Positions 38,270-59,935 of a stretch of 64,000 nt of DNA are shown in pieces. The DNA comes from Nitrososphaeria archaeon. Lineage in GTDB: Archaea; Thermoproteota; Nitrososphaeria; JACIWG01. Location of the stretch: contig CAVVXT010000007.1 in assembly GCA_963752255.1 (NCBI GenBank), positions 1 to 64,000 of the forward strand. Reading direction: 5' to 3'. The notes beneath the pieces were generated by a model that was not told where the DNA came from, did no database searches, and was given only the letters and a program-made list of their open reading frames with translations. Within the stretch, counting starts at the first letter, position 1. Every line of letters starts with the position of its first letter. The translations under genes were made by a program, and so were the position numbers.

Positions 38270-38293
38270 GTGCTCCGGCCGGGATTTAAACCC
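38270..38293 (-). repeat. att site: duplicated tRNA-Glu 3' end
   Basis: 23 of 24 bases match 50450-50473. Confidence 0.88.
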
Positions 38294-38500
38294 TAATTTA
38301 CTAGTAAATTATTAGGAGGATAACTGCTTTCGAATTCGGTGGGATTTGAACTAATTTGGGTTTAAGTCTGCATCGTTATACAACTGTACTCCATAAATTC
38401 GTTGAATATGTCGCAGGCTCTATAAATGTTTTAAATTTTTGGATATTTAGAAAGGTTTAAAACCGTCCAATCATTCAATCAGATTTAAAATGGTGACCGT

Positions 38501-38908
38501 TTGAAAAGGACAATTGCATTAGTTGCACATGATAATAAAAAAAATGATTTAGTGGAGTGGGTTGAATATAACAAAGGGACATTAACCCCCCATAATTTAT
38601 ATGCAACTGGACAAACCGGAAGAAAGATAATCGAGAACACAGGGTTAGAAATAAATCTCCTCAAGGATGGCTCTAGAGGAGGAGACATGGAAATTGGCGC
38701 TCTAATAGCAAACGGGAAATTAGATTACCTGATCTTCTTTTGGGATCCTTTGGAATCTCTTCCCCATGATGTGGACGTTAAAGCACTTCTTAGGATAGCT
38801 GTTCTATATAATATACCCACTGCATGTAATAGGGCAACAGCCGATTTGATAATTTCAAGCCCACTATTTAAGAGCGAAGAATATATGCCAAAAAAGGCGA
38901 CAGAATAA
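38501..38908 (+). CDS. mgsA: Methylglyoxal synthase
   Basis: IALVAHDNKK, ATGQTG, GGDMEIGA, FFWDPL, PHDVDVKALLR, ACNRATAD. Confidence 0.95.
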   Translation: MKRTIALVAHDNKKNDLVEWVEYNKGTLTPHNLYATGQTGRKIIENTGLEINLLKDGSRGGDMEIGALIANGKLDYLIFFWDPLESLPHDVDVKALLRIAVLYNIPTACNRATADLIISSPLFKSEEYMPKKATE

Positions 38909-39241
38909 AAATTAATTTAACGATCCCAAGTCTTTTAGTTTTAATCCTAGAGTGCCCTTCAATATCATATCTTATCTCCAATCACTCTCTAGGAAGACAT
39001 TACACAGATTATAGCTCCACAAAGACTAAAAGGGATATAAGATAAAGCTGAGCTAAAAATATTAATTATTGATTAGGTTAGATAGTCTATTCATATACTC
39101 GGAAGCATATTAAAGAAATAGCCATAAGATTCAATTTTAATCTTTATGAAATATCTATTTCCCTTTACTAATAATGTTACCAGTTCAAATTCTTGATCTC
39201 TTTTTTTTAATTGTATATTTCCAGAAAATAGTCCAAACCTT

Positions 39242-39676
39242 TTAACTTCGATTTATTGCACTTTCGTCCACATATATTCTTTTTCTGCATTCGGGACAGA
39301 ATTTTTGCTTGAATCCTCTTCTCCGTAAAGGTTTGAACAGTTTTCTGCAAACACTGCATTCGACCTGATTAGCACTAGGAGATTTAATTATCTTCAATCT
39401 TCTTCCAATTTCAGCTTTAGTTTCAACATCAATCTCAGCCTCAAGCGCATCAGTCAACAGTTGACTAGCCAGTTCTACGCTTTTGTCTCCAAAAAGTTTC
39501 ACAAAAACACTATGCTTATCCGAGCCTATTTGCGCTGGCAACATGCAAACAAAGTTTGAGGGATACTTTTCAGGCCTATCCAAATCAACTACTGCACAGC
39601 GATAGCGTTGCGCCAAAGAAGTTCCACTTGCTCCTTTCATCTTGAATATTTTCAGCTTAACATTCATGTCCATCAA
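39242..39676 (-). CDS. Hypothetical protein with C-terminal Zn ribbon
   Basis: CSVC...CPEC; YPSNFVCMLP. Confidence 0.75.
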   Translation of the reverse strand: MMDMNVKLKIFKMKGASGTSLAQRYRCAVVDLDRPEKYPSNFVCMLPAQIGSDKHSVFVKLFGDKSVELASQLLTDALEAEIDVETKAEIGRRLKIIKSPSANQVECSVCRKLFKPLRRRGFKQKFCPECRKRIYVDESAINRS

Positions 39677-39875
39677 CTAGTTTTTTATGATATAAGATAG
39701 GAAGAGCTAGGATCACAACTAAGATTAGTTAGCTGTTTCTATAGCTTCTCAGTTGTCTAAGCCATTGATAGCTTATGCTCTTAGTGAGATAGCCTCCTTT
39801 AACGGTGTAAAATCTGTTAGGACACATATCTATCAGTTTTTAATAGTGGTCCTCCTATTTAAAGAAGCCCTTATT

Positions 39876-39953
39876 CTTCAATCAAATAGAGATTTCTTAA
39901 TTTCTATGCCCTTGATCTTGATATAGAGTTCGTCTGCTCTCCATGTGTCGCCA
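39876..39953 (-). pseudogene. IS6-family transposase fragment
   Basis: Translates to IGDTWRADELYIKIKG, nearly the same as VGDTWRADELYVKIKG in the transposase at 44815. Confidence 0.8.
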
Positions 39954-40020
39954 ATAATGCATTTTTATTCTCTTACGCCCATGAAGACAAAACTGAGGAA
40001 CGGATTCTGAGAACTGTTCT

Positions 40021-40299
40021 CTATCTTCTGATTGATGCAATTATCTTCCCGTTCGCATTGTCTCTCACGTTTATCTGCTGGGGGTGCACCTCAAAGTTGA
40101 CATAGCTTAGACAGTCCATAGATTCTTGACTTACCTCTCCATCTGGGCTTCCTGTCGCACCTATTGCAATCAGAACTTTAGAAGCACGCCTGCTCTTTGG
40201 CACACCATTCTTCGAAAGGTATCTTACTACTTCTCTCCTCGTGTAGAACTTCACTCTTTGTTCACACTGTTCGTTGGATGACATACCATTTCCTAACAT
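40021..40299 (-). CDS. Hypothetical protein
   Basis: 92-aa ORF with upstream TATA-like element; no motif recognised. Confidence 0.55.
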   Translation of the reverse strand: MLGNGMSSNEQCEQRVKFYTRREVVRYLSKNGVPKSRRASKVLIAIGATGSPDGEVSQESMDCLSYVNFEVHPQQINVRDNANGKIIASIRR

Positions 40300-40336
40300 T
40301 TATCGAGTGGAGTACTATATAAAGGAAGCTCGGTCT

Positions 40337-40388
40337 GGTTCTGTTAACTTATCGGCTCGTCAATCTTGGTGTTAACCGTCGGCTCATG
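40337..40388 (+). repeat. Left terminal inverted repeat (52 bp)
   Basis: ggttctgttaacttatcggctcgtcaatcttggtgttaaccgtcggctcatg. Confidence 0.95.
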
Positions 40389-40404
40389 TCATTTTGTCGG
40401 AGGG

Positions 40405-40815
40405 CTAACCATGAATGTCTTTCAATCTTGTCTTTAGCAATATTTTCTTTCCATCCTTGAAAACAATCTTAGCGTTGTCATCTTCCTTTCCAGCGGGTAT
40501 TCGATATAATCCTGTTCCGTTTTCAAGGATATACTTGGCATGCTCCCTGTTGTTTTCACAAAGGAGACTTTCTCCATTGTAAAGGACAATAAAATCTGCG
40601 ATTGCCTTAGTCGGGCGAACTTCTATCGCTTTGTTACTTGCAATAGGTTCTGTAACTATCGACTTCCTTATGGTAGGATTAATCAGAATTTTCTCTTTCT
40701 GTTTCTCCCTTCTCATTTTTATAGTCTCAAAAATTATGCCTACCCAAATCCCAATAGCTGTAATAATACTTGCTATAATCCCAATAGATGTAAGGTCAAG
40801 ACTTACCATAGGCAC
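40405..40815 (-). CDS. Hypothetical protein with N-terminal TM helix (cargo)
   Basis: One hydrophobic helix followed by a beta-rich soluble part. Confidence 0.7.
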   Translation of the reverse strand: MPMVSLDLTSIGIIASIITAIGIWVGIIFETIKMRREKQKEKILINPTIRKSIVTEPIASNKAIEVRPTKAIADFIVLYNGESLLCENNREHAKYILENGTGLYRIPAGKEDDNAKIVFKDGKKILLKTRLKDIHG

Positions 40816-41028
40816 ACCTAATTAAGATACAGAACCCAATGGTTAAAAGGCTTAACTCACACACAAATTTTATATTACGGCTTACCAATTAATATTTGAA
40901 CAATTTGGAAAAAAAAGAAGTTGAACCCCCAGATAAAGAAGTAAAAGAGGTCAAACTCCCAGATAAAGAAGTCAATTTAATGATTCCGCACTTATTCGAT
41001 TGAGTTTTTCCTTCTAATGCTTAAATAT

Positions 41029-41499
41029 TTAAAAATGGAAGATTAATTTTATTATTTCTTGATAGATAACAATAATTAAGAGTGAAATATAGAATAGTAT
41101 AAGCCAATTTTCAGCTTTTGGAAAAAGTGAGAATTTAAGATAATAATAGATGGGTATAGTCAGAAGGAAACTAATGGAAATAACAATTAGCTGTATAGAC
41201 GCAGGAAGATTAGCAAGGTTAGGTATTTTAAGGATTAATGAGGAAATGAAGATTAATGTATAAATCATTAAAGTGAACCAAGATAATAATTTTAAAAATG
41301 CCTCATTATATGAATAGCTCATAAAATGTCCGAAAGACCAGAAAGAAAAAGAGAAGATTATCATAACTGAATAGATTACGAAACTAATCCAATATTGTTG
41401 ATAATCTTTTAGAAGCCCTATTGAGATAGTAAGTATTATTGTTGTAACCAAAAACAATAATTCAAAAACCTTATCAAACTTCTCAATTGGTTTCGGCAA
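41029..41499 (-). CDS. Hypothetical multi-pass membrane protein (cargo)
   Basis: About five hydrophobic segments; very AT-rich. Confidence 0.7.
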   Translation of the reverse strand: MPKPIEKFDKVFELLFLVTTIILTISIGLLKDYQQYWISFVIYSVMIIFSFSFWSFGHFMSYSYNEAFLKLLSWFTLMIYTLIFISSLILKIPNLANLPASIQLIVISISFLLTIPIYYYLKFSLFPKAENWLILFYISLLIIVIYQEIIKLIFHF

Positions 41500-41550
41500 C
41501 TAAAATCAACATTAAAGTTGATAATCTTATAATCATTTAAACTTTATAGA

Positions 41551-42552
41551 CTAACAAACTTCATTGCCTTGCTTTCGCAAGTAATCCCAATAGCTTGTGT
41601 TTGATACAATCTTCTCAATGGCTTCTTCATCAATGTCTCCATGTTCATCTATTGGCACATGAATTTGTAACTTTGACAATTTTTCTCTGAAACATTTCCT
41701 ACCATAGGAGTAACGCCATATCTGTCGGTTGATGATGTATTGGATAAAAATAAGGGTGCTGGTTTTTAACAGTTTTTTTGGGATGCATACTGCAACATCA
41801 TCTTTAGCTGCAAATCTATAAGGATGATATTTTGTCGTCAATGGACGACCATTATAAGCTATGGTGAGAGTATTAGCGTATATCATATTTTTCGGAACAG
41901 AACAATACTTCACCAAACCATTGCCAGTTTCACCGCAAGAAATCAATGGAATCTTGCCATCAGGCAATTCAGAAGCATTATGATAATCACCACTGTGAAG
42001 TTCAAACACATCCGTGATACCAACATGAGCATACTTTAATTTTGGCTCGGGTATCTCCACCTTGTTAGTTTTGGAAGGTAAAAACTTTTGAATTGTCGCA
42101 TTTTTAAGGACATCTGCGATTTTATCCTGATCAATTTTTCCTTCATTATTTATCGGAAATAAAACGGAAAGTTTCTTGACTTTGTTCATGTAACTTTTTC
42201 TACCATACGAGAACCGCCAACGTTCCCTATTCAAATACGCAATTGTATAAAAAATTGTGGACAACTTTACACCTTCTCTTGGAATACATACCAAAACATT
42301 ATCTTTTGCAGCAAATCTATAAGGATGATAGAAACTTGTTAAAGGTGTACCATCACAAGCAATTGTAACGCAATTCTCATAAGTCTTTGGCAAAGGAATT
42401 TTGAAATATCCTTCTACTCCATGTTCTTCCGTCTTGCATGATATTAACGGTACATCACCTGATTCAAGATGAGAAGAGGCATGATAGTCGCCTGTTTTCA
42501 CTTGAGAAAAAACAGCGTCCACACTAAATCTTGAAAACTTAACTTCACTCAT
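41551..42552 (-). CDS. Restriction-modification specificity subunit (two TRD halves)
   Basis: Internal duplication GDYH...PLISC...YHPYRFAAKD...WRxSYGRK; directly downstream of the N6-methyltransferase. Confidence 0.88.
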   Translation of the reverse strand: MSEVKFSRFSVDAVFSQVKTGDYHASSHLESGDVPLISCKTEEHGVEGYFKIPLPKTYENCVTIACDGTPLTSFYHPYRFAAKDNVLVCIPREGVKLSTIFYTIAYLNRERWRFSYGRKSYMNKVKKLSVLFPINNEGKIDQDKIADVLKNATIQKFLPSKTNKVEIPEPKLKYAHVGITDVFELHSGDYHNASELPDGKIPLISCGETGNGLVKYCSVPKNMIYANTLTIAYNGRPLTTKYHPYRFAAKDDVAVCIPKKLLKTSTLIFIQYIINRQIWRYSYGRKCFREKLSKLQIHVPIDEHGDIDEEAIEKIVSNTSYWDYLRKQGNEVC

Positions 42553-42553
42553 T

Positions 42554-44498
42554 CTAAGCCCCCCCTTCATGTGAAGTGCGAATCAAATAGGCTACAACAT
42601 CTCGCACAGTTTCCTCAACGCCTTTTTGAATATCATTCAGTGTTGGAACATTCTCATCTAAATAAGCCTCTGAAATCAACTCAAGCTCGGTATCATCGAA
42701 ATCAATTTTTGAGATTTTTTGAGACTCTGGAATACTCTCAACTTGAATATGTGGGTTCATGATGAAGGACTGTACCAAACCTTTAACTCTTTCAAGGTCA
42801 GTGGGGACGTTAGGATCGGCTTTGAGATCAGGAAGACGCTTTCCTTTGATTTTCCGATACCCATCATTTGTTATCTTAATCCAGAGAACACCTTGTTCAT
42901 GAGGGTGTGGATAACCCTTTCTGACGATTATGCCAAGAGAGGGCGGTTGTGATTGTGGGTAAAAGAGGTCTTCAGCGAAAGTAATTACAGAGAGAAGCGT
43001 GTTTCCAGCTAACAGATTTGACCTCCATGACTTGTATACACTTCCTTTGACCATTGTAGAACATGGCAATATAGAGAAAAGCAATCCCCCATCTTCCATT
43101 TGTTCTAATGCATGTTCTATGAAATCGAACTCTTTCTCATTACTTTTTTTCAATGCGAAAGGTGGATTCATCAAAACTTTTGTAATTGCCCTTTGTTCAT
43201 TCTTAACATCTCGTGAAACGAACTTTGCGGACGGTTCAGAATTGATGGTTGTAGCCACAATGCCTCGTGCAAAACAGTTGTCATTAATAATATTGTTTTT
43301 TCCATCTCCTCGAAATATCATGTTGGTTATTGCAAGTGTTGCAACACTTGACTGCAAGTCTACACCGAATATTCGATAAAGCCTAAATGCGTCAAGTTGT
43401 GATTGATTTGAGTTATTTTTCACATGATAAAAACTTGATACCAGAAATCCCCCTGTCCCGCATGTCGGATCGTAAATAACATCTTTGTGCGTGATATTCA
43501 AAACATCAGAAGCAAACTCCGTTATATGTCTTGGAGTTAGAACTATGCCCAAATCCTTTGCACCATTTCCGTATTTTAAGAATGCTTCGTAGAATCTACC
43601 TAATACATCAGAACCTGTCCTCATGGCTGCTTTTATGTTAACTTTCCGTAGTATAAAGAAACCTTGCACCAAAGCCTCTTTGAACCTATTCTTGGCATCC
43701 TGCTTTTCTGGCAATTGTATTTCTATATACTTAAAAAAGTCTTCCTTTCCATTCTTTTTTAATACTTCTTTTGCTCGAACGTTAATATCATTCACGAAAA
43801 CATCAGGGTTGTCATTATAATTCGGTTCAGTTTCCCCTAAGAGTGAAAGAAGCATTGTGGCAACTATGGTTGCTCTTTTATCCTTTCTTATTCCTGCCTC
43901 ATGAAATTTTTTGTTAATGTCATCAGCAGCTTTCAGCAATAGGTCGTCAAGAATATCAAATTCCTTTAAGATTGACGTTTTCTCATACATCAACCTCTTA
44001 GCAATCTCAGGAGTGAGAAGGCTCGTTATTTCCTTTCCTTCATATATTATAGGATGAAACTCCTTTTTTTCTTCAACCCAAAAAGCGTTTCTTACAAGAT
44101 ATTTGTCAATGTCATTTCCTGCTATACCAGTAACAATCATTGCCTTCACAAATTTATGATCATTAAGCAATGTGCCATACCATTTCGCTTCGCTGAACGC
44201 TTTTTCTATTTCCTCAAGAGTTGGCTTTGCTTCAATTACCCAAAAGGCATCTTCAGCTAATTTTACTACATATTCAGGGTGCAGTTTTACCCATTTGCTC
44301 GCAATCTCTCTGTTTTGATGACATTCGTTTTGTGTGTATACTTGCCCATTTGGATCTCTGTTAGGGTTGTTAACATTCCATCCTTTGTCTAAGCTCATTC
44401 TTGATGTAAGTGTAGGATTGAAATTCAGAATCTAAAGATTTTCTTCTCTTTTTTATTACTGCATCCTGTCCTTCAAAAGTTTTTTGGGATTCAACCAT
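42554..44498 (-). CDS. Fused restriction endonuclease / N6-adenine methyltransferase (Type IIB BcgI-like), frameshift near 44391
   Basis: PEYVV...VIEAK nuclease-like motif, LTPRHI, YDPTCGTGGFL, MNPPF; upstream frame from ATG 44498 (…DSEFQSYTYIKNEL) shifts into DKGWNV. Confidence 0.85.
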
Positions 44499-44504
44499 AA
44501 CTTT

Positions 44505-44705
44505 TCATCCTTCCCTTAACGGTTCTACTATAATAGCCATTTTTCCGTTTATTACGTTGATTTGCCATTTAAGTTTATCCCCTTCTCTTAAATGAAACTG
44601 TCTCACAAAACCTATGGGAATTGTAGTTCGCAGAGATTTACTTTTTGTGGTTGCTACCGCTATTGTTGTGATTTCTCCTTCTTGGTCTTTTGATTGGTTC
44701 GCCAT
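44505..44705 (-). CDS. AbrB/MazE/SpoVT family DNA-binding protein
   Basis: SKSLRTTIPIGFVRQFHLREGDKLKW. Confidence 0.88.
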   Translation of the reverse strand: MANQSKDQEGEITTIAVATTKSKSLRTTIPIGFVRQFHLREGDKLKWQINVINGKMAIIVEPLREG

Positions 44706-44707
44706 CG

Positions 44708-44814
44708 CTTACCTATGGATAGGTGCCTACCTATAAACTTACCTATTAGATTACCAATAGATTTACCTAAAAATTTATATAGTTAGGTAATCATATAGGT
44801 ATGGCGATAGGTAA
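44708..44814. promoter_or_regulatory. Divergent promoter with symmetric TACC/GGTA operator array
   Basis: TACC at 44710, 44728, 44740, 44752, 44764; GGTA at 44786, 44798, 44810; dyad centred on TTTATATA. Confidence 0.8.
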
Positions 44815-45927
44815 ATGATTAACAATCTGCGTGAACAAAAAGGAAAGGAAATAGCCCAACTTGAAGGGCAAATAAAAAGGATTGACGGTCATTTATACAA
44901 AGTTAACTCCCAAAGTGGTAACGGTGTCTATGATGTTTTCAGCACAGAGTTAGGCTGGAAATGCTCTTGCCTCGACCACCAGTTTCGTGGCGTGAAGTGC
45001 AAGCATATATTCGGGGTTGAGTTCTCACTTGAATTAAGACGAGAGGTCGAAAACTCTATCATAATCAAGCCAGTAAGCATTCAAATATGTCCTGAATGCC
45101 AATCTAATGATATTGTAAAGCATGGTATAAGACACAATGAATCAGTTGACATTCAGAGATACTACTGCAAGGCTTGTGGTAAATGGTTCGTCATTAACTT
45201 AGGATTCGAAAAGATGCACGCCACCCCTCAAATGATAACCTCTGCCATGCAACTCTATTTCACGGGAGAATCATTAAGAAGTGTGCAGAAGTTCTTAAGA
45301 TTACAAGGCGTAAACATATCCCATGTAGCCGTCTATAAGTGGATAAGAAAATATGTAGGTCTAATGGAGAAATATCTTGACCAAATAAAGCCCAACGTTG
45401 GCGATACTTGGAGAGCCGATGAACTTTATGTTAAGATCAAAGGAAATATGAAATATCTCTTTGCACTTATGGACGACGACACACGCTTTTGGATAGCTCA
45501 AGAGGTAGCGGACACAAAATACACCCATGACGCAAGAAGACTATTCCAATTAGGCAAAGAAGCAACTGGAAAGAGACCAGAGACCTTAATCACCGATGGT
45601 CTACCAACTTACCACGACGCATACAAGAAAGAGTTTTACACCAACTATAAGCCGAGAACCGAGCATGTAAAAGAAATTCGTTTAAGCGGGGAAATCCACA
45701 ACAACAAGATGGAGAGGATGAACGGTGAAATCAGGGATAGGGAGAAGGTTATGAGGGGATTAAAGAAGGGCAATACACCAATCCTGAAAGGCTATCAGAT
45801 TTTCCACAACTATCTAAGACCGCATGAGGCGTTAGATGGACAAACCCCTGCTGACAAGTGTGGAATCAAAGTCGAGGGAGATAACAAGTGGATAACATTA
45901 ATACAGAACGCAAGTAAGAATATTTGA
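44815..45927 (+). CDS. IS6-family DDE transposase with N-terminal SWIM and Zn-ribbon domains
   Basis: SWIM CSC...CKH, CPEC...CKAC, HTH (SLRSVQKFL...SHVAVYKWIRKY), WRADE, ITDG, NNKMER. Confidence 0.92.
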   Translation: MINNLREQKGKEIAQLEGQIKRIDGHLYKVNSQSGNGVYDVFSTELGWKCSCLDHQFRGVKCKHIFGVEFSLELRREVENSIIIKPVSIQICPECQSNDIVKHGIRHNESVDIQRYYCKACGKWFVINLGFEKMHATPQMITSAMQLYFTGESLRSVQKFLRLQGVNISHVAVYKWIRKYVGLMEKYLDQIKPNVGDTWRADELYVKIKGNMKYLFALMDDDTRFWIAQEVADTKYTHDARRLFQLGKEATGKRPETLITDGLPTYHDAYKKEFYTNYKPRTEHVKEIRLSGEIHNNKMERMNGEIRDREKVMRGLKKGNTPILKGYQIFHNYLRPHEALDGQTPADKCGIKVEGDNKWITLIQNASKNI

Positions 45928-45984
45928 CAATCCTCTAATTTTTTTATTGTGGACTAAAGTAAAAAAAATTTATATATTAATTTA

Positions 45985-46356
45985 TTGAATTTACAGAAAA
46001 TGGCACTCAGTTCCGATATTATAACTGTGTTTTTACTCTTTCTTTTTATTTTTATTCCTGTTGCGGTGATATTGCTCTCTAATATTATTTATAATAAATT
46101 AGCAAGAACAGAAGAAGAAGTTGCAGTAGATTATACGGGACAGTTGGTTTCTGGGCTTGTAGCAGGTATAATAGTTGCATCTGCAACATCCTTTACAGAA
46201 CTTAGTCAAATGAACCTTAGCTTTGAAGCAAAAATAACAGTTGGTTTAGTAATTGTGGCAATCATTTTTGCTGTTATGACATTTGGATTGTATATATTTA
46301 CCAAAACCAAATCAAAAAATAAAAAACAAGAGCACACGATTTATCAGTATGACTGA
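45985..46356 (+). CDS. Hypothetical three-TM membrane protein (cargo)
   Basis: Three hydrophobic segments and a basic tail. Confidence 0.7.
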   Translation: MNLQKMALSSDIITVFLLFLFIFIPVAVILLSNIIYNKLARTEEEVAVDYTGQLVSGLVAGIIVASATSFTELSQMNLSFEAKITVGLVIVAIIFAVMTFGLYIFTKTKSKNKKQEHTIYQYD

Positions 46357-46475
46357 TATTCATAGGTTGTATAAGATTTACCCTAACCTTTTGAACCATG
46401 CACAACGAACGCAACACCAATATTTTCCTAAATCGCATGCACAATGGATACATAAGAACCGACCAAAGATTTGAG

Positions 46476-46527
46476 CATGAGCCGACGGTTAACACCAAGA
46501 TTGACGAGCCGATAAGTTAACAGAACC
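46476..46527 (-). repeat. Right terminal inverted repeat (52 bp)
   Basis: Exact reverse complement of 40337-40388. Confidence 0.95.
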
Positions 46528-46954
46528 TGGAAACGGACGTTGACAGAAGTTTATCAATGAAGCCAAAACGTCGATCTAGAACAACCGATGTGGAACTATA
46601 AGTGGTTGCAAGGAGTGTTATGAAAATAACAATACCGCAAGCTAAGAAAGAGAAGTAATCAGTTACGCCAAATACATTCGTCATTATGTGCGATTGCAGA
46701 CCACTAAAATATGTGCTTATTTGCAGGAGTTGTTGTTGAGTGGCTGGTGGAGTAATTATTAAAGCAGGAAATTGGCCAGCTGTGAATATTCCGTTTATGT
46801 TTATGCCTTTTCCAAGCAGACCCATCCATATAATAGGCTGGGCAACAGTGAGAACGAATACAACGGGATTTTTGAACCATTTTATGAGTTCACGACCCGT
46901 TAGCGCTCCCAAACCATGTAGGGGATTGTTCGAATCTCTGGCGTTGCCCGTCAT
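46528..46954 (-). pseudogene. ABC-2 (DrrB-like) permease truncated by the transposon end
   Basis: RELIKWFKNP...QPIIW...DRRFGFIDKLLSTSVSR then reads into the TIR and stops. Confidence 0.88.
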
Positions 46955-46957
46955 ACA

Positions 46958-47879
46958 TCATCGCATCCTTCTTCCTTCTGCTCTTTGCATAGTCTCCCTT
47001 TGCCGAAAAACCGTAACTTTAGATCCTTCCTCTTCCCGCAAACTCTTGCCCGTGAACTCAATGTAAACTTCATCCAGCGTGGGTTTCGCCAATGAAAACC
47101 TTGCCACCTTATATCCTTCCGTTCTCACTGCATCTATTATGTCTGGAGCAGCTTCCTCTCCGTCTTCTACCTTTATCCTATAAGTGCTATCCTGCCTTTT
47201 CACTTCCTTAACTCTTGGAACTCTTTCAATTATGCCAGAAATATCTGTGGCATCTTGGATGCTTAACATTATAATGTCTCCGCCGAGACCTTTTTTCAAA
47301 TCATTTGGAGTGCCAATGGTAACTATTTTTCCATGGTCAATGATGGCAATACGGTCGCAGATCGAGTCAGCCTCTTCCATATAATGCGTTGTCAGAAATA
47401 GAGTCATTAAAAATTCTTTTTTCAACGTTTTGAGGTAATTCCAAGTGGCTGCTCTTGTTTGGACATCTAATCCCAAGGTGGGTTCGTCTAGAAAGAGCAC
47501 TTTAGGGCTGTTAATTAAACTGCAAACAACTTCTAACCTTCTGCGCATTCCTCTCGAGTAAGTTTGAACTTCTTTGTCTTTGAATGCGGTTAACTCAACT
47601 AGGTTCAAGAGTTCCAAGGCACGTTTCTTCGAAATATCCTTTGGAACTCCGTAAAGGGCTGCGCATAACAATATGTTCTGATAGCCTGTTAGATCTTCGT
47701 CGGCAGTATATTCCTGTGGCAACATACCGATCGAGTTCTTGACGCTTGAATTCTGTTTGGCAACATCTTTGCCAAGTATCAAGGCCCTACCTTCTGTTGG
47801 CTTTAGTATTGTGGTGAGCATTTTGATAGTTGTTGTTTTTCCAGCACCATTTGGCCCTAAAAAACCAAAATTCTCGCCT
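46958..47879 (-). pseudogene. ABC transporter ATP-binding protein (DrrA-like) lacking its N-terminus
   Basis: Homology begins at GENFGFLGPNGAGKTT; signature altered to YSRGMRRR; DEPTLGLD. Confidence 0.8.
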
Positions 47880-48074
47880 GATTCGCCGCTTAATGCTTTG
47901 ACTGAAAAGCAAAGACGAGTCCTCATTACGGCGTACAAGTTAGGGTATTATGACTTGCCAAGAAAAATCAGTTCTGAACAATTATCAAGAAAACTCAACC
48001 TTCACAAATCCGCTTTGGCGACGCACCGCAGAAAAGCAGAACTACGCATACTCACTCAGATGCTAAAAGAATAA
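47880..48074 (+). pseudogene. C-terminal HTH (bacterio-opsin activator type, HTH_10) regulator fragment
   Basis: LTEKQRRVLITAYKLGYYDLPRKISSEQLSRKLNLHKSALATHRRKAE, with no N-terminal domain or start of its own. Confidence 0.85.
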
Positions 48075-48169
48075 TGCCGAGGTAGCCACTTGACCAATCA
48101 AAGGGATTTCCCGCATTTTCTCTTAGAAATAACTAATGGAAAAAGGACTTAAACCCTTTTGGGTATAGG

Positions 48170-48253
48170 TCCCACCGAACTTGAACCTAATTGCCCTTCT
48201 AATAATTTACCAGTAGATTTATGCCGAAATCCCACCCCCCACACTAATAGACC
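48170..48253 (+). repeat. att-like relic: conserved flank, 18-bp box and tRNA-Leu(GAG) 3' end copy
   Basis: 48170-48220 aligns in reverse with 38294-38344; aatcccaccccccacactaat matches the tRNA-Leu(GAG) 3' end plus its flank. Confidence 0.75.
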
Positions 48254-48471
48254 GAACACGCGATCTCATCTTCAATTAAAACTTTTAGAAAGGTGAATCC
48301 ACACTTTTCGTAGAGTTTCTGCAGTGTTTGAGTTCTTGCAGGACTTTCCACAGACGTTTATTCCAGATAGATGGAAAGGTGATATTTAGGGTTTATTGTC
48401 TCAATCAGTCAAAAGATTACTTCATCCGTCTAATAAAAGGTTAAAAATGTACAAACAATTATAAATTTTAA

Positions 48472-49557
48472 ATGGCAAAAAACATCAAATGGATAGGAAT
48501 CATCATAGGTTTGATCTTAATTGGAATGATACTAGGGATTTCACTTTTCCAAAATGTTACAACGACTTCGCCTTCCACAGTAACATCAACAACCACAGAA
48601 CATTCCACTTATACATCGACCTTTACAACTACATTTCTAACTATGTCGGCAATAACATCGACTCAGACTTTAACTACGACACTGCCAGTAACCATTACAG
48701 CAACTTCTCCGCAATATACTACAGTTACGACAACAGCAACTTCAGTTCAGCCTTCGGGCGAAGTTGTTGGCGTCTATTTTTCCCCCAACGGTGGCTGTGC
48801 GGATAAGGTAGCATATTGGATAAGCCGAGCAAATTCTTCCATACACGTTCTGATATATAGTTTTACGCTCACAAATATCGGTGATTCGTTGATACAGGCA
48901 AAGAATAAGGGTGTAGACGTTAAAGTTGTCTTTGAAAAGAGTCAGGTCAGTCAGGACTCTCAGTATTTCAGGCTCGCAAACGCAGGCTTGGATGTAAGAA
49001 ATGACACTAACCCAGACCTAATGCACAATAAGGTCGCGATAATAGACGGATACATCATAATAACGGGGAGCTTCAACTGGTCCAGTGCTGCAGAGAGTGA
49101 CAACAACGAAAACATGATCATCATAAACAGCAGCAACCTTGCGGTCAGATATGAGGCAGTGTTCCAGCAGATCTGGAGCCTTAGCATATCTACATCAAGT
49201 CAGACCACTAAAACCTCTACAACACTGCCCAGTGCAGTCACCATCTACGAAGCACATTATGATGCTGCAGGAGACGACTGGAACAACTTAAACGATGAAT
49301 ACATTATAATTAAGAACTTTGGAAATGCTGTTGTATCTTTGACAGGATGGCAGCTTGTAGATTCGATTGGGCATACTTTCACATTCCCAGAGTTCTCCTT
49401 GTATCCTGGAGGTACTGTAACTGTTTACACTGGCTCCGGCATGAACACGGTGACTGCGCTTTACTGGGGGTCGGCAAGTCCGATATGGAACAACGACCAT
49501 GATACAGCGTACCTTTACGACCAAAATAGGAACTTGATCGATAAGAAGATCTGGTAA
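48472..49557 (+). CDS. Membrane-anchored PLD-family (Nuc-like) nuclease with Thr-rich linker and lamin tail domain
   Basis: VYFSPNGG, single HKD (HNKVAIID...TGSFN), C-terminal DEYIIIKN...LTGWQL...IWNNDHDTAYL. Confidence 0.88.
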   Translation: MAKNIKWIGIIIGLILIGMILGISLFQNVTTTSPSTVTSTTTEHSTYTSTFTTTFLTMSAITSTQTLTTTLPVTITATSPQYTTVTTTATSVQPSGEVVGVYFSPNGGCADKVAYWISRANSSIHVLIYSFTLTNIGDSLIQAKNKGVDVKVVFEKSQVSQDSQYFRLANAGLDVRNDTNPDLMHNKVAIIDGYIIITGSFNWSSAAESDNNENMIIINSSNLAVRYEAVFQQIWSLSISTSSQTTKTSTTLPSAVTIYEAHYDAAGDDWNNLNDEYIIIKNFGNAVVSLTGWQLVDSIGHTFTFPEFSLYPGGTVTVYTGSGMNTVTALYWGSASPIWNNDHDTAYLYDQNRNLIDKKIW

Positions 49558-50023
49558 CTCAAAATTTCTCTTACTCAATAATGATTAATGTAGTATAAAG
49601 TATCAATACGCTGCATAAAGAGAGTTAAACTAAAATTTCAGAATCAATTGTCGAGTTTAATTTATGTTAGCCTTTTTTTGTTCTATCTCCAAAAATGCTT
49701 TATATCATAATAATCATTTGATTTCCATCAACTTTTTTTCTAAAGTCTGACTTTTCTGTGTCTTGTGTAGTCTAATATCAGTGCACCAATAATAGCCAGC
49801 GTCCCAACGACAGAAAGTGGGAGAAGAAGAATTGGAAGATTTCCTGACTCTGGCAATCCCTGTTGCCCGTTTCTAAGCGTGTAGCTGGAAACTGGTGTAC
49901 TTGTGCCCTGTTCGTAAAGTGTTGAAAGCTTCCTGAGTTTGAAAAGACATCATGAAGCCCTTATATCCAGTTAAATAGAGAGCTTTTATTCTCAAGTGCT
50001 CAAATAATTTAGAAAAGTTGCTT

Positions 50024-50323
50024 CTAAAGAAAACGTGCTTTCTTTAACTCTCCGTTGACTTTGTTAAATTCTTTGAAGGTGTCTTTTAGTGAAATCGGCG
50101 CCTTTCTCTGCATATATTTACCTGAAATAAAAAGGGCCCATCCAACCGCATCTGATATTGTCGGATCGGGCAACGCTACCAAAGCGATGCCGAAGTTAGA
50201 AATTTTTTTGCCAACATTTGTTGAATGAGTAATGTTATACACTCTGGGCTTTAGAGAATTCGAGTCTATACAAGAACCTGTTTTTTTTAAAAAAGAATAA
50301 TGTTCATCATATTCAGTAGACAC
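50024..50323 (-). CDS. Hypothetical archaeal protein
   Basis: Hydrophobic core GIALVALPDPTISDAVGWAL. Confidence 0.6.
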   Translation of the reverse strand: MSTEYDEHYSFLKKTGSCIDSNSLKPRVYNITHSTNVGKKISNFGIALVALPDPTISDAVGWALFISGKYMQRKAPISLKDTFKEFNKVNGELKKARFL

Positions 50324-50450
50324 TTTTTATTTCGTCAACTTTATTTGAATGTTTATTCATTGCTGTTTCTGACTTGTTGGTCTGCTAATTAAATCACTAA
50401 AGGTGCCAAAAATATGGTTCAAAGTTAAAAAATTTTTACCAGTAAAAAAG

Positions 50451-50526
50451 TGCTCCGGCCGGGATTTGAACCCGGGATCTTCGGCTCGAAAGGCCGGAAT
50501 GCTTGACCGGACTACACCACCGGAGC
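50451..50526 (-). tRNA. tRNA-Glu(TTC)
   Basis: GCTCCGG/CCGGAGC acceptor, loop CTTTCGA, TTCAAAT. Confidence 0.95.
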
Positions 50527-52301: not shown

Positions 52302-52341
52302 AAATCATTCTGTATTAACAGAATTATCTGTTTAAAAATTG

Positions 52342-53523: not shown

Positions 53524-53563
53524 AACTTAAATTTCCAATCCTATTTAAGTAGTACGCGATATA

Positions 53564-53860
53564 ATGAAAAAAGATGACAGATGCTACATATATTATATAC
53601 CTTGGGAAAGAGAGCTGCCAGAAAACGAACTGGAGAAGAAAGTCCTCACACTTGGACCAGATGAGGGAATAAGGATATCAGCTGAACTAAATGATGGAAG
53701 GATGGTAAAAATTTTTGTAAACAAAACTGGTCTTGAATATGTTATCACACTAACTTATGATAATGGAAAAGAGCACATATCCAGCTTCAAAAGTGGTATC
53801 GAAGCTTACAATGCACTATTTAAACAAATAAAGAGGATAAGAAATATCATTCTATACTAA
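53564..53860 (+). CDS. Hypothetical protein
   Basis: 98-aa ORF divergent from cysS. Confidence 0.65.
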   Translation: MKKDDRCYIYYIPWERELPENELEKKVLTLGPDEGIRISAELNDGRMVKIFVNKTGLEYVITLTYDNGKEHISSFKSGIEAYNALFKQIKRIRNIILY

Positions 53861-53892
53861 GCTAAGTCTACGGAAAAACGTTTCGATGGAGA

Positions 53893-54921: not shown

Positions 54922-54934
54922 TGCAATTCGCCTT

Positions 54935-55711
54935 TTATCCTTTAACTATTTTTAATGCTTCCTCTAAACTCTTCCCTTCTATGACTAAGGCTCTTAAAGC
55001 ACCAGCCATTTTAAGAGGCTGATTATGTTGCCAAACATTTCTCCCCACCGCTACCCCATTGCCACCGGCATCTATGACCCCTTTAACATGCTGTAAGAAG
55101 ATCTCTTCAGTGGGAGCTTTTGGGCCGCCTGACATCAAGACCTTCGATTTCCCCGCGGCCTTAACAGCCCAGCTAAACGATGCAGGATCACCTGAGTACT
55201 TTATCTTCACAGCATCAGCCCCGAGCTCATGACCTATCCTCGCTGCGTAGGCAACTATTTCTTTGGTGGTATCATCCTTCACTGCTTCCCCTCTTGGATA
55301 AATCCAAACTACAACTGCCAGGTCGTGTTTCCGAGCTTCTTCCTGAATCTTCCCGAATTCTTGAATCATTAAGCTCTCATACATGCTGCCTGGGTATATG
55401 GTGTAGCCTACTGCTTTAGCGCCCAAACTTACGGCGTATTCGACAGAACAGTTTTGTCTAGCAATTGGATCACCTTTAACGATGTTTGTTTTACCATTTA
55501 CCTTCACAATCAGGGGAACTCTACCATTGTAGTAGTGCTCAGCTAATCCCTTTTGAAAAACGATACCGTTGAAATGCCCCTTTTCAGCAATCTCCATTAT
55601 GAAGCTGGGGTCTATGTTTTTTTGGTTAAAGTCTGTGGGACCGTGCTCTAAGCCTTGATCGTATGCGAGTATTATGGCTCTATCCTTTTCTAGGAACTTA
55701 TCAAAACCCAT
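54935..55711 (-). CDS. fba: Archaeal-type class I fructose-bisphosphate aldolase (DhnA family)
   Basis: AYDQGLEHGP, WIYPRG, ELGADAVKIKY, SGGPK, VGRNVWQ. Confidence 0.93.
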   Translation of the reverse strand: MGFDKFLEKDRAIILAYDQGLEHGPTDFNQKNIDPSFIMEIAEKGHFNGIVFQKGLAEHYYNGRVPLIVKVNGKTNIVKGDPIARQNCSVEYAVSLGAKAVGYTIYPGSMYESLMIQEFGKIQEEARKHDLAVVVWIYPRGEAVKDDTTKEIVAYAARIGHELGADAVKIKYSGDPASFSWAVKAAGKSKVLMSGGPKAPTEEIFLQHVKGVIDAGGNGVAVGRNVWQHNQPLKMAGALRALVIEGKSLEEALKIVKG

Positions 55712-55825
55712 AGTTATCTAAGCAAAGAGATAGAAAGCGATATATTAACTTTTAACATAAGCCTGTTTTAAAACTGACTTGAGACGTCAAAGATTTAAAT
55801 CATATCAAATAAAATAATGCAAAAA

Positions 55826-56965
55826 TCATTTTTTGAATAAGAGGACGCTCTCAAGGGCTGATCCAATCTTGCGTCTTTCGTGATCAGTAACCGTTCTCCT
55901 GTTAACGTACAGTATCTTTTCCACTTTGAATCCAACGCTTTTGGCCAGTTCTGATATATGTAAATGAACAGGAATGATCCTATCAGGGAAGACCCCTTCG
56001 CCAACGACCATGGCAACTTTCCCTCCGTCTTTCAGAACCCTAAACTGCTCCAGGAGAATCCTTTTAATATCCTTAAGATACGCTTTTCCAACAGCTGGAA
56101 TATCCAAGTCTGAGAAATCTGAGAAATCGCCGGTTACATCAAGCCCAATATAGGATCTGATAGCTTCAGATCTTGATTCTCCGAAGAAGAGCTCATTTTC
56201 CAGAGAATACACTTTCATGTAGTCTATTATGTTAAGATAGGGGGGAGAAGTGATAACGGCATCAAAAGCCGCATCATCAAGGAAATTGAGACTCCTAGCG
56301 TCTCCTTGGAAGACCTTAACCGATGCTCTCTCAGGACCGAACTTCTTTAGATCATTAAACATTCTCTTCACCGTCCTCTTAAACAGCGGCCTGAATGGAG
56401 GAACATTTTTAATCGGACGTATCTTTATATAAGATCCATCCTTGTAAGCGAATGAAACCTTCTCTGAAGATATCATAAGCGCCAGAGTGAAAAAGTTCCG
56501 AATCGTAGGATCTTCGATGCGCGCTATAATACCCTTGAAGAAGATAATATCCTCAAGCGCATATTTTGTAAACGAACGCTTCACCATTGAACTATAAGCA
56601 CTGACATCGGTGGGAACAAATTTGTTCGCAAAGATGTTTCTGGATATCACCTTCATTTTTTCTATGTCATAGTCCATAGTTTTGACTTGGGAGAGAAAGA
56701 TCGACAAAGGCATCACATCAACCCCTATAGAGTTTATTGCACGCTCCTTGCACGAAAGAAGGGTCGTCCCTGAACCACAAAAGGGGTCCAGAACCCATTT
56801 GCCGCCTTTGATCCTAAAGCGATCTAACATAAGAAAAACAAAATCTCGTGAGAAACCTTCTTTAAAATGGAACCAGTTATATATGGGATACCGTTTGTTT
56901 GGAACAAAGGTTATAAGCGGACCCCGATCAAAGTCTTCTTCGACTCTAAAATTACCCATCTGCAA
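55826..56965 (-). CDS. DNA methyltransferase (N4-cytosine type)
   Basis: WFHFKEGFS, LDPFCGSGTT, ITSPPY. Confidence 0.88.
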   Translation of the reverse strand: MQMGNFRVEEDFDRGPLITFVPNKRYPIYNWFHFKEGFSRDFVFLMLDRFRIKGGKWVLDPFCGSGTTLLSCKERAINSIGVDVMPLSIFLSQVKTMDYDIEKMKVISRNIFANKFVPTDVSAYSSMVKRSFTKYALEDIIFFKGIIARIEDPTIRNFFTLALMISSEKVSFAYKDGSYIKIRPIKNVPPFRPLFKRTVKRMFNDLKKFGPERASVKVFQGDARSLNFLDDAAFDAVITSPPYLNIIDYMKVYSLENELFFGESRSEAIRSYIGLDVTGDFSDFSDLDIPAVGKAYLKDIKRILLEQFRVLKDGGKVAMVVGEGVFPDRIIPVHLHISELAKSVGFKVEKILYVNRRTVTDHERRKIGSALESVLLFKK

Positions 56966-57312
56966 TCATCATTCGTCCTACGGGAGTGAATTTAACAATT
57001 GTGCACAGGCAGCCTCCGTTTACTATCCTTCTTCGCAATCCCTATTTTATTTTATAAGTGCTTGAATTCAAAGTCTATTACTTTCTTAACATAATTTCAC
57101 TATTTATCTAACTATGACAAATGACAAACCTCCTGCCTTCCAAAACCATATTAAATAAAAAATATGGCCCTCAATCTCAGAAAATCTATACCAATTTCCG
57201 CATATAGCGCTAAATATTTCACGTTTGAATACTAATTAATGAAGTGTTAGATGAATGAATATTCGTTATAGAAAGATTTAATATCTCTCCTATTATTTTT
57301 TATGGAGACTAT

Positions 57313-58326
57313 TTGAAGGCCATAATGATTGCTAAACCACATAAGATCGAAGTCGTTGACGTCGAAAGACCGATAATAAACGATACAGAGATATTGGTTA
57401 AGGTTAGGGCTGTAGGAATATGTGCTTCAGAAGTTCACGCATTCGAAGGAACACATCCCTGGAGAGTTCCTCCGGTAATTTCAGGCCATGAATTTTCAGG
57501 CTCAATAGTTGAAGTCGGAAAGGAGGTTAAAGGATTCAGTGCAGGGGATAGCGTTACAGCCTGCCCAATAGCAACATGCGACATATGTGAATACTGTCTA
57601 GCGGGAAGGGACAACATCTGCGATAATATCAGAATCCTTGGGACGCCAAAGTGGCCCGGTCCATTTGCTGAATATGTAAGAATACCTTATTCGATCGCCT
57701 ACAGGTTACCCTCTAGCCTGACCTTTGAGGAGGGAGCTCTCATAGAGCCTCTTACAGTAGGATTACATACTGTGAACAGATCTTCGATAAAGAATGGACA
57801 ATTTGTAGCCGTCTTAGGAGCTGGGGCAATAGGCCTCTGTACGTTAATTATAGCTAAACATTTGGAAATAGCGTCAATAATATCGGATATAGTTGATTTC
57901 AAACTAGATAAAGCAAAGAGTCTTGGAGCGGATTTTATTATTAACCCCAAAAGCGAGGAACTTTACAAAATCGTTAGAGATGCAACAAAGGGCAAAGGAG
58001 TTGATGTAGCGATAGACTGCGCCGGTGTATCTAAGAGTCTCACAGATTCATTGAGCCTTGTGAAGAAGGGTGGAACAGTCGTTGTGACCGCACTGTTTAA
58101 GAAGAGCGTGGAAATGGACCCGGGAACAATTACCACAAGGGAACTTGATGTTCGGGGAGCAATTTTATATACAAAGGCGGAGTTCAAGAAGGCTGTATCA
58201 GTAAGCGAGGGAGTTAGAACCGATCTAAGGCAGCTGATAACACATAGAATGCATTTTGAAGACGCAGAAGAAGCTTTTGGACTGATGCAAAGAGGGGAAG
58301 CAATCAGGATAATGTTGAGCCCATAG
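57313..58326 (+). CDS. Zinc-dependent alcohol dehydrogenase (sorbitol/threonine dehydrogenase-like)
   Basis: GICASE, GHEFSG, CDICEYC...C, GAGAIG. Confidence 0.93.
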   Translation: MKAIMIAKPHKIEVVDVERPIINDTEILVKVRAVGICASEVHAFEGTHPWRVPPVISGHEFSGSIVEVGKEVKGFSAGDSVTACPIATCDICEYCLAGRDNICDNIRILGTPKWPGPFAEYVRIPYSIAYRLPSSLTFEEGALIEPLTVGLHTVNRSSIKNGQFVAVLGAGAIGLCTLIIAKHLEIASIISDIVDFKLDKAKSLGADFIINPKSEELYKIVRDATKGKGVDVAIDCAGVSKSLTDSLSLVKKGGTVVVTALFKKSVEMDPGTITTRELDVRGAILYTKAEFKKAVSVSEGVRTDLRQLITHRMHFEDAEEAFGLMQRGEAIRIMLSP

Positions 58327-58695
58327 CGTGAAAAGATCTTGAACATTCCTTCTAAAACAGTGCTTAATCTCCTTTATTTCGACTCCATCTTAGAAATCAT
58401 CTTATACATTATTAGCTAATGCTTCTGGTTAAACTTGATGTTGGAGTTTATCTACCATTATTCCAGAATATACATATTATCGCCTAGACTTTCTCTCATT
58501 TTAGATTTTGTAAAATATTCCAGGTGCTAAAGAAAAATGTACAAGCTAAACTGTGTTTTTAGTAACCTTTGTCCACTTGATCTTTTATTAAAACCTCAAG
58601 CTCAGCGAAAAGGCTGAATGCGTGGGTATGGAATCGATAAAATTTAAATCAGTGTTTGCTACAGTCTAGTCGGATATTATCTGAGAGGCGCAATA

Positions 58696-58944
58696 GTGTT
58701 TCTTGTAGTCTTCTTCATTCTAGTCTTCGCTACTCTCGGATACGTTGAACTACCACCTGGAAGAATGATATACAACCTACTTAACGTCCCCGAAACAGAC
58801 TATTCTGTACTCGGAATTGAAGCGACAACTCTAGCTATTTCAGTGTTCAATGGGGTAGTTTATGGACTCATAGCCTGGTTAATCTATACTCTGGTAGCAG
58901 GAAGGGAGAAGAAGGACCAGACCACCAAGAAAAAGTCGAATTAG
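58696..58944 (+). CDS. Small membrane protein
   Basis: Two hydrophobic segments and a basic tail. Confidence 0.65.
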   Translation: MFLVVFFILVFATLGYVELPPGRMIYNLLNVPETDYSVLGIEATTLAISVFNGVVYGLIAWLIYTLVAGREKKDQTTKKKSN

Positions 58945-59336
58945 CCTTTTTTTACTATCATTATTTCTTCCAAATAGTAGGTTCACCATCACTGATTGTC
59001 TATAAGATTATATTCAAACTCTCTTAATGAATTTGCATAATCTTTATTTTGCAAAGTAAACACTCTTCATAACTCGAACATCATACTGAATGGCTCAGGT
59101 CTTCTTTATTCGAAATTCGATTACAACTACTCGGGAACTATGGTTCACAGTTCCTCCCAAGACTCGTTTAGCACGATGTCTCTAGTGACTATTCTCCTCT
59201 GTTGTTTCTTATCCAAAAAAGGTCAGAGGAACCTATTCTCTAATCCAGACTCACTAGCCTAAGCAGAAGTAAAGAGGGTGCTTTAAGGAAGATAAGGAAA
59301 CAAATTCAACCAACAGACATTTCCACACATAATAAG

Positions 59337-59353
59337 GTGCGGGGGTGGGATTC
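59337..59353 (-). repeat. Short direct repeat of tRNA-Leu(GAG) 3' end
   Basis: gtgcgggggtgggattc versus gtgcggggggtgggattc at 59850-59867. Confidence 0.7.
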
Positions 59354-59850
59354 CCTGACGCATATGTGGGTTCGAATTCCGCGAAGCCAGCCAAGTCGGG
59401 CGTAGAAAAACTAATTACATGCTTCGGCAGTTTCAGATTTTATGAGCGGAATCAAGCACCCCCAGATGTGCCCGCGACCGCCACCTTACTTCGTTGAAGA
59501 GCAACCCGCCTTACGAGGTACAATACTGCACCTGAGAAAATTGCTATAAATGCACCCTGGCTAAATTGTAGAGTATGCTTTCTTGGTCGTACAGATTCGA
59601 AAGGAGTCCAAACGCTATGAACAGGGCGGCCATCCACACAACAATTGCGACGTTCGGGTAGTCGGACCTGCTTCTGCGCCGTACCCCAACAGACGTAGCC
59701 TTGAAAGCATACTGGCATCTCTTAAGGCTTCGTATAGATTATGCCAGATTTATTAATATTTATTGGCTATATTACATATTTAGACATCAATTATTAGCAT
59801 AAATTTTAAGGTTCTTCAGGACATCCCATAATAATTCACTGGTAGATTAG

Positions 59851-59935
59851 TGCGGGGGGTGGGATTCGAACCCACGAACCCCTACAGGATAGACGCCTCA
59901 GGCCTACGCCTTTGACCTGGCTTGGCAACCCCCGC
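59851..59935 (-). tRNA. tRNA-Leu(GAG)
   Basis: GCGGGGG/CCCCCGC, TAGGC-CTGAGGC-GTCTA, long variable arm. Confidence 0.95.

Follow-up and report, generated by a model that had tools for sequence, protein, structure and literature searches.

The first 64,000 nucleotides of contig CAVVXT010000007.1 from a Nitrososphaeria archaeon (assembly GCA_963752255.1; hereafter the window) hold four copies of an 18-bp palindromic box, with core TTTACYRGTAAA and a variable central pyrimidine-purine (YR) step, at tRNA genes or tRNA 3'-end fragments. A sequence-only reading had located these boxes and proposed that they belong to a retargetable integration system, whose attachment site (attP) would have the form box / tRNA T-arm-acceptor segment / box. 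All four coordinates match: 38294-38311, a perfect 18-nt palindrome, 48203-48220, 50432-50449 and 59832-59849. Two of the boxes directly follow intact minus-strand genes called by both ARAGORN and Rfam, tRNA-Glu(UUC) at 50450-50526 and tRNA-Leu(GAG) at 59850-59935, with one base (50450, 59850) between box and discriminator (50451, 59851). The boxes at 38294 and 48220 sit 23 nt from the discriminators of tRNA fragments (38271, 48243), and the similarity around them extends past the box to TTCGGTGGGA at 38336-38345 and its complement at 48176-48185; both spacings and the extended similarity are as had been claimed. No box lies downstream of the window's other tRNA genes (Asn, Met, Thr, Arg), again as the reading had it. 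An 18-mer search allowing up to 3 mismatches gives three matches in the window, the perfect palindrome and two relatives, against 0.08 expected from shuffles; the 18-mer at 50432-50449 is too degenerate for such a search, its central 12-mer TTTACCAGTAAA being perfect.

Empty sites in a sister species define the insertions

The window's genome (G000) has a sister species in the same genus (G001, ~95% identical). There, the flank that ends at window position 38293 abuts tRNA-Glu directly, the two matches overlapping by a 24-nt core with no box, and the end of tRNA-Leu(GAG) is joined to the sequence that ends at 59353 in the window; identity over the matched flanks is 88-97%. Since both tRNA sites are empty in G001, 38294-50449 and 59354-59849 are insertions, and the boxes are part of the inserted DNA. 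The former is a 12,156-bp island in tRNA-Glu(UUC), the whole of which is absent between the same flanks in G001; the latter is a 496-bp remnant in tRNA-Leu(GAG), likewise absent. A third island of G000 (contig C19:145294-148800) occupies tRNA-Ser(UGA), and this site too is empty in G001. The sequence-only reading had held that a box at the empty tRNA loci of relatives would speak against it; the empty tRNA-Glu, tRNA-Leu(GAG) and tRNA-Ser(UGA) sites of G001 carry none.

Direct repeats of tRNA 3' ends bracket all three islands, with the intact gene at one end. At the Glu island they span 24 nt (38270-38293 and 50450-50473, one mismatch) and at the Ser island 24 nt with two mismatches. The island regenerates the last 24 nt of tRNA-Glu, and the displaced 3' core at 38270-38293 (minus strand), the attR core of the island, bears an element-type base that is also seen in the Glu module of G001. 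G001:C18 was considered as an intact Glu element and rejected, as it has neither tRNA nor integrase. The distal (X-side) box at 38294-38311 begins with the first base pair of inserted DNA, and both it and the proximal (Y-side) boxes that directly follow tRNA-Glu and tRNA-Leu(GAG) are missing from the G001 empty sites. Beside the distal box lies the X arm (38312-38370, minus strand), a conserved element-side arm that holds a degenerate Arg-like T-arm piece, CCCACCGAA, and aligns with seven other copies from G000 and G001 (alignment A4). The GC content of the Glu island is 35-40%, compared with 41-44% in its flanks.

The true displaced 3' core of tRNA-Leu(GAG) lies at 59337-59353 (minus strand) and comprises 18 nt of the tRNA end minus one G; no box stands beside it, the distal arm having been lost. 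The sequence-only reading had instead taken the Leu fragment at 48243 for the displaced copy of the gene at 59850. This is wrong, as the fragment lies on the opposite strand and inside the Glu island, where it belongs to an inverted, orphan attR-type module (48150-48244, plus strand) made up of an X arm (48150-48202), the box at 48203-48220 and a 24-nt slot with a tRNA-Leu 3' core (48221-48244). The junction of this module and its downstream flank recur at C19:539836-539930 of G000, and the module could have arisen by nesting, inversion or capture. A terminal-inverted-repeat transposon bounded by 38294-38370 and 48150-48220 was rejected as the primary reading: the empty site in G001 defines 38294-50449 as the unit that was inserted.

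Box distribution and register in the genome and its relatives

The sequence-only reading had proposed a genome scan for enrichment and fixed spacing of the box at tRNA 3' ends. Allowing up to one mismatch, the 18-mer has 9 forward and 7 reverse placements in G000, against 0 for a reversed-pattern control, and 8 and 8 in G001, with 0 or 1 in 38 of 39 other relatives. Of the 12 G000 sites within two mismatches, 11 have a T-loop-like motif beside them in register, and at the remaining site the motif is degenerate; at three mismatches the 18-mer no longer discriminates in this genome (17 sites, 21 in the reversed control). A strict 12-mer search returned 13 sites, 8 of which adjoin a tRNA or a tRNA 3' fragment. 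Occupied sites have a common layout, with tRNA then box on one side and, on the other, a box separated from the displaced core's end by exactly 24 nt. This distance is always 24 nt, whether the core is Glu, Ser, Leu or His-like, and alignment A4 shows a homologous arm of ~55 nt plus box preceding each of four cores (Glu, Ser, Leu and the His-like CCCACTTCAC) in G000 and G001.

Were the box a tRNA-flanking signal native to the genome, or a dispersed repeat that has nothing to do with mobile DNA, it might look as it does in G007, a genome of a related genus in which a single box stands right after tRNA-Leu with no integrase nearby. Such an origin is already contradicted and has next to no probability: the empty Glu, Leu and Ser sites of G001 lack the box, it follows just 3 of the 46 tRNA genes of G000, and in other archaea it co-occurs with an integrase operon, as described below.

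Three observations from G000 concern repeated or composite sites. A composite of an Arg 3' core, a 23-nt spacer ACCCAATTCTTCTCTGTTCATTA, the box and a second core (Leu or other) is found three times (C12:265523-265665, C10:49448-49560, C19:77284-77370), once behind intact tRNA-Arg(CCG), and could be a trace of serial target change. A ~790-bp repeat of 99% identity (C19:539094-539884, C19:35967-36757, C6:29475-30140) carries a gene for a 166-amino-acid (aa) helix-turn-helix (HTH) protein (DUF7347/HTH_20) followed by box and Leu core; the third copy ends before the box. The cargo of the Ser island (C19:145330-148715, 3.4 kb, comprising an SPFH/zinc-ribbon protein and two open reading frames, ORFs) is 88% identical to G001 C4:50259-53655, a different locus with no boxes at its ends.

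Box-core-box sites in other archaea

To look beyond these two species we scanned public genomes, one per species, with a pattern comprising a T loop, 14 free bases and the 12-mer. At least 119 loci were recovered, 80 of which were fetched for analysis; by record title, 75 of these are archaeal, four bacterial and one (L145) unplaced. The groups named include Bathyarchaeia, Thermoplasmata, Archaeoglobi, Methanothrix, ANME-1, Hadesarchaea, Nitrososphaerales and Nezhaarchaeota. ARAGORN called the adjoining tRNA as Leu at 36 loci, Ser at 17, Glu at six, Gly at four and another tRNA at six, with no call at 11, though some of the class II calls look wrong. The free positions beside the 12-mer are A/T-rich and prolong the palindrome. 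Within the fetched loci, seven displaced cores from other archaea were found, and six of the seven have the box in the same register. In one element of ~11.5 kb that has kept its integrase (L130), the far end consists of a box, 3 nt and a 24-nt slot, the last 14 nt of which repeat the tRNA end. Metagenomes scanned for the box plus T-loop motif yielded 20 contigs. All but one of them (L073) show acceptor-like ends, of Leu, Ser and other types, for which the pattern had not asked, and their distal genes form a mixed cargo. The box-free sites of G001, the 24-nt register, the six displaced cores and the far end of L130 together bear out the proposed attP form of box, tRNA T-arm-acceptor segment and box.

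The Thermoplasmatales metagenome-assembled genome that holds loci L135 and L131 (G045) has 7 forward and 7 reverse box-plus-T-loop matches, where the control has 0. Two of the matches overlap at a single box, so that ~13 distinct junctions remain, and this genome is rich in box-type elements. Box-core-box arrangements at L056 and L072 were also inspected, but the operon described below does not follow them, and they are probably tandem or relic junctions.

A small protein and a Xer-like integrase follow the box

The sequence-only reading had called for the gene that co-occurs with the box in intact elements. Such a gene was found outside the window. Of the 80 loci, 24 have the box followed by a small gene and an integrase gene, nine others hold fragments of the small gene alone and 47 hold neither; among the 57 loci whose downstream sequence reaches 1600 nt or more, the gene pair is present in 20. 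A TATA-like hexamer comes directly after the 18-mer box, the small ORF starts 16-39 nt past the box (complete ORFs of family size), and its end overlaps the 313-338-aa integrase ORF by ~15 nt. The same order of tRNA, box and operon is found in three IMG/VR contigs, behind tRNA-Leu, tRNA-Ser and tRNA-His, with slightly variant boxes.

The second ORF encodes a tyrosine recombinase of ~320 aa. All 17 of those tested match PF00589 (E 1e-22 to 1e-32; 81-112 bits against a Pfam cut-off of 27.1) and possess a SAM-like N domain. The best NCBIfam model is XerA_Arch (NF040815), which the four enzymes tested match at 154.5-180.2 bits, under its 220-bit cut-off. In these related loci the integrase ORFs are whole and lie downstream of the att site. 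The small protein, of ~178 aa and 38-84% identity across phyla, appears to combine a ribbon-helix-helix (RHH)-like N-terminus, a coiled coil and a wHTH-like (winged-helix-turn-helix) C-terminus. Its N-terminus is predicted to run strand, helix, G-x-S, helix, and aligns in register with RHH_1 segments by hhalign (E 1.3e-3, probability 18%), with Pfam matches below cut-off to DUF6364, ParG and Arc; the middle has weak, below-cut-off Pfam matches to coiled-coil families, and the winged-helix-like C-terminus a weak HTH match. Pfam, NCBIfam and PHROG contain no family for the protein, searches of sequenced phages and plasmids were without a match, and a PDB search by sequence gave nothing significant. 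It forms at least 1404 clusters in a protein collection, where the 120 clusters listed have no Pfam domain and are named 'hypothetical' or plainly spuriously, and a protein atlas holds it in unnamed archaeal clusters only.

The placement of the proximal box raises the possibility that the box is only a promoter-proximal operator or transcription factor B recognition element (BRE) of the integrase operon, perhaps also ending the transcript of the regenerated tRNA, with no role in recombination. The box does abut the TATA-like hexamer at the position of a BRE, and the Glu copy is flanked by T runs. However, a second box lies distally, far from promoters, at a fixed 24 nt from the core end in G000, G001, metagenome contigs and other phyla; this register is meaningless for a promoter, and in an excised circle the two boxes would bracket the core. 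We therefore consider a purely transcriptional box quite unlikely.

Neither gene of this operon is present in the window or anywhere in G000, and in this respect the co-occurring gene that had been sought is missing. PF00589 matches in G000 (6), G001 (5) and G007 (2) are all away from boxes, and none is in or near the window's islands. No recombinase gene shared by the box sites of G000 emerged from all-against-all BLAST of flanking ORFs or from Pfam. The 353-aa ORF of the Ser island has no Pfam or PHROG family, and may resemble a glycoside-hydrolase-type enzyme, not a recombinase. An SSV-type split integrase was rejected for the window's elements, as stops occur in all six frames across the box-core region. 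Among 41 relatives the small-protein gene is found in three, partly as pseudogenes. The operon is missing from G000, from G001 and from the eight further genomes of their family covered by the search, which marks the window's islands as orphan relics whose operon, to judge from these genomes, was lost. Because the corresponding sites of G001 are empty, an active integrase must have operated in the lineage since the divergence of the two species, perhaps supplied by an element outside these assemblies.

Other integrases have left traces in G000. Integrated elements at C19:525901-527300 (L027:1901-3302) and C5:73094-74600 encode 457-481-aa ORFs with a weak PF00589 match, whose open frame starts inside the 3' end of tRNA-Arg(UCG) or tRNA-Lys(UUU), with no box after either tRNA; these represent a different integrase family in the same genome. 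At C3:166879-168967, an inverted copy of the tRNA-Cys 3' end (32 of 32 nt) lies 2 kb from the gene, and the copies bracket a stop-interrupted integrase gene; this segment may be inverted or invertible.

A model for box-guided integration

These data suggest that the boxes are probably the element-side borders of two decayed islands of an integrative family spread over many archaeal phyla and characterized by a box-core-box attachment site, a Xer-like integrase and a putative box-binding small protein. The attachment site of the element comprises an 18-bp box, 24 nt that copy a tRNA 3' end from its T stem through the first base beyond the discriminator, and a second box. The Xer-like tyrosine integrase would exchange strands with the chromosomal tRNA gene somewhere within this 24-nt core, leaving, after integration, an intact tRNA followed by one box, with the other box preceding the displaced core. 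In intact members the proximal box abuts the TATA box of a leaderless two-gene operon encoding the small protein and the integrase. Most likely the small protein binds the boxes, which would scaffold recombination and repress its own promoter. Its dimers could occupy the two boxes, which, with 42 bp (some four helical turns) from centre to centre, would lie on the same side of the DNA. The complex so formed would place the integrase on a freely variable core that need not be read in detail, and would capture a bare tRNA gene. From the proximal box, the same protein would shut down its operon; at the KplE1 intS promoter, binding sites that overlap the int promoter are described as conferring autoregulation (PMC2951348).

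The boxes might alternatively be bound by the integrase itself, as arm-type or extended core-type sites, with the small protein acting only as a transcription regulator or as a directionality factor elsewhere. Tyrosine recombinase sites consist of a 6-8 bp overlap plus core sites, which the 42-bp spacing of the box centres far exceeds; the integrases, at ~320 aa with a SAM-like and a catalytic domain, have no extra N-terminal arm-binding domain; and attB, the bare tRNA gene, is a substrate though box-free. On the other side, the boxes are placed symmetrically about the crossover region in the manner of recombinase sites, the DNA-binding folds of the small protein are weakly supported, and Xer-type enzymes are described as binding inverted repeats (PMC8371274). 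On balance we hold direct binding by the integrase to be improbable, though it is the strongest of the alternatives to the scaffold model.

Several observations weigh against the box-core-box element as we picture it. Two of three extended, operon-bearing elements show no distal core within 13 kb and 24 kb, respectively. No free circular attP (box-core-box) was found in two scans of viral contigs, whose only hits were one match by chance and a 42-nt iteron array that is unrelated. Among the 57 loci with enough downstream sequence, 34 have tRNA and box but no operon; operon-less box loci may be relics, and a few possibly chance matches. The assignment of RHH and wHTH folds uses weak profile matches, with Pfam all below cut-off, the hhalign probability quoted above and non-significant PDB hits. 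Four of the 80 records are labelled bacterial, and junctions in which a tRNA and its box are followed by the core of another tRNA (L113, L119, L127), along with the composite of Arg core, spacer, box and Leu core, are unexplained by simple integration. These junctions and the Arg-Leu composite could be traces of the acquisition of new cores.

The iteron array comes from an IMG/VR contig (L204, positions 1-140), which consists of tandem 42-nt units each with GTTTACTAGTAAA; it is iteron-like, has no tRNA piece and matches the box in the 12-mer only.

The same junctions suggest another role for the box, namely that of the crossover site itself, a small dif-like palindrome to which the tRNA pieces are passengers. 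One box indeed joins a tRNA to the core of a different tRNA (L113, L119, L127; C12:265523), the palindrome has a variable central YR, and the integrases are Xer-like. Yet the direct repeats of the islands are 17-24 nt of tRNA core rather than box, the empty sites offer no box to recombine with, and the element-type base in the displaced Glu core, also present in the G001 Glu module, puts the exchange inside the core. Crossover at the box is accordingly very unlikely, and the preferred reading remains strand exchange within a core that two boxes frame.

Target switching

Under the box-core-box model, placing a new 24-nt core between the boxes would suffice to change the target. Retargeting by core swap, as the sequence-only reading had proposed, holds at the sequence level: homologous arms and box precede four different cores in G000 and G001, and the integrase tree groups three Leu-targeting enzymes and one Glu-targeting enzyme in a single clade (support 97/99, 63-68% identity) drawn from Nitrososphaerales, Nezhaarchaeota and Bathyarchaeia hosts. 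In the rest of the tree, Gly, Ser and Leu targets are interleaved. A bolder and rather doubtful extension is that any tRNA whose last 24 bases sit between two operator boxes can be served by one conserved two-protein module of box-binding protein and Xer-like integrase, with the choice of target made chiefly by an exchangeable DNA cassette and by scaffolding through protein, not by sequence reading on the part of the integrase.

Cargo and other features of the window

The Glu island carries genes for an MGS-like protein (38501-38908), the S (41551-42570) and M (42554-44398) subunits of a type I restriction-modification system, an IS6/IS240-type transposase (44815-45927), an ABC transporter (46517-47938), an HTH_10 protein (47739-48074) and a PLD-like nuclease with a lamin-tail domain (48472-49557). 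The Leu remnant holds an 88-aa ORF (59452-59718) with no family match. Elsewhere in the window, 15739-15830 (minus strand) resembles the anticodon arm (TAA), variable arm, T arm and 3' acceptor of tRNA-Leu(UAA); it was called neither by ARAGORN nor by Rfam at the gathering score, and may be an intron-bearing gene or a fragment. Positions 1-8000 have a GC content of 50-64%, compared with ~41% in the rest of the genome, and contain no rRNA or other RNA family by Rfam.

Significance

Taken alone, the window gives a modest result, two orphan islands with restriction-modification and nuclease cargo. The wider family touches an old open question, namely how tRNA-targeting integrases change targets. 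Archaeal att sites have usually been defined by a shared repeat alone. The short, symmetric and highly conserved layout of the site leads to a directly testable model, with an accessory protein, seated on two operators, framing a variable core. If correct, this model would explain repeated target switching (Leu, Ser, Glu, Gly, His), supply a simple marker for relic and live integrative elements in archaeal genomes, and provide archaea, for which genetic tools are scarce, with a compact means of site-specific integration. Should the cassette also set the target, it would amount to a naturally programmable integration system across archaeal phyla.

Comparison with known systems

The box-type elements share features with several known integration systems. 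SSV-type ('suicidal') integrases are likewise archaeal and tRNA-targeting, with targets that change between relatives, but they carry the att site within the integrase ORF, and integration splits it, whereas here stops fill all six frames across box and core and the integrase ORFs are whole and downstream of the site. Archaeal XerA/dif shares the best-matching NCBIfam model and palindromic targets; however, the scores here fall under the cut-off, the genes lie in mobile islands at tRNA genes, and dif has 11-nt arms around a 6-nt spacer where the present site is box, 24 nt, box.

In a lambda-type intasome the integrase is brought to a naked attB by accessory proteins that bind DNA at attP. The lambda attP is ~240 bp long, with asymmetric arm sites bound by the N domain of the integrase; the site described here is ~60 bp and symmetric, and its integrase is without an arm-binding domain. 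Lambda attP is described as carrying Int, Xis and IHF sites, and attB two Int sites (PMC8371274).

Non-partitioned archaeal integrative elements of the pNOB8 type and the XerC/D-type cryptic integrated elements of Thaumarchaeota resemble the present family in having an intact tyrosine integrase and short att cores at tRNA 3' ends; their cargo often includes restriction-modification genes, and CopG/RHH proteins are common (PMC6563490). Their att sites, in contrast, are defined by the shared repeat only, and outside its supplementary tables we found that source to name neither palindromes at the flanks nor a conserved operon of small protein and integrase abutting the att site (PMC6563490). The four exact box strings were in no relevant paper found, and the text of the literature searched, including PMC8371274, PMC5861418, PMC6563490 and PMC4158269 (supplements and figures aside), gave no description of the box or the operon. 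The widespread archaeal integration module with its boxes is thus apparently undescribed.

The closest described system, likened to ours by description rather than by sequence, appears to be that of the haloarchaeal pleolipovirus SNJ2. Its tRNA-targeting tyrosine integrase IntSNJ2 is co-transcribed with two small helpers, Orf2 and Orf3, of which one has a coiled coil and the other is a MarR-like wHTH protein. These helpers enhance integration and are proposed to bind conserved arms next to a short core (PMC8371274; PMC5861418). In the present family a single protein of ~178 aa unites the coiled coil and wHTH-like part and adds an RHH-like N-terminus, the helper gene precedes the integrase where the SNJ2 helpers follow it, and the hosts are non-halophilic archaea of many phyla. 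The arms, moreover, are two palindromic boxes in fixed register, while the main text on SNJ2 names no palindrome or inverted repeat (PMC5861418). The gene for the small protein, with its coiled coil and wHTH-like end, overlaps the integrase gene, an arrangement that may be analogous to that of SNJ2. Elements that pair a tRNA-targeting tyrosine integrase with helper proteins are therefore already known in kind; the box layout and the operon that accompanies it are apparently new.

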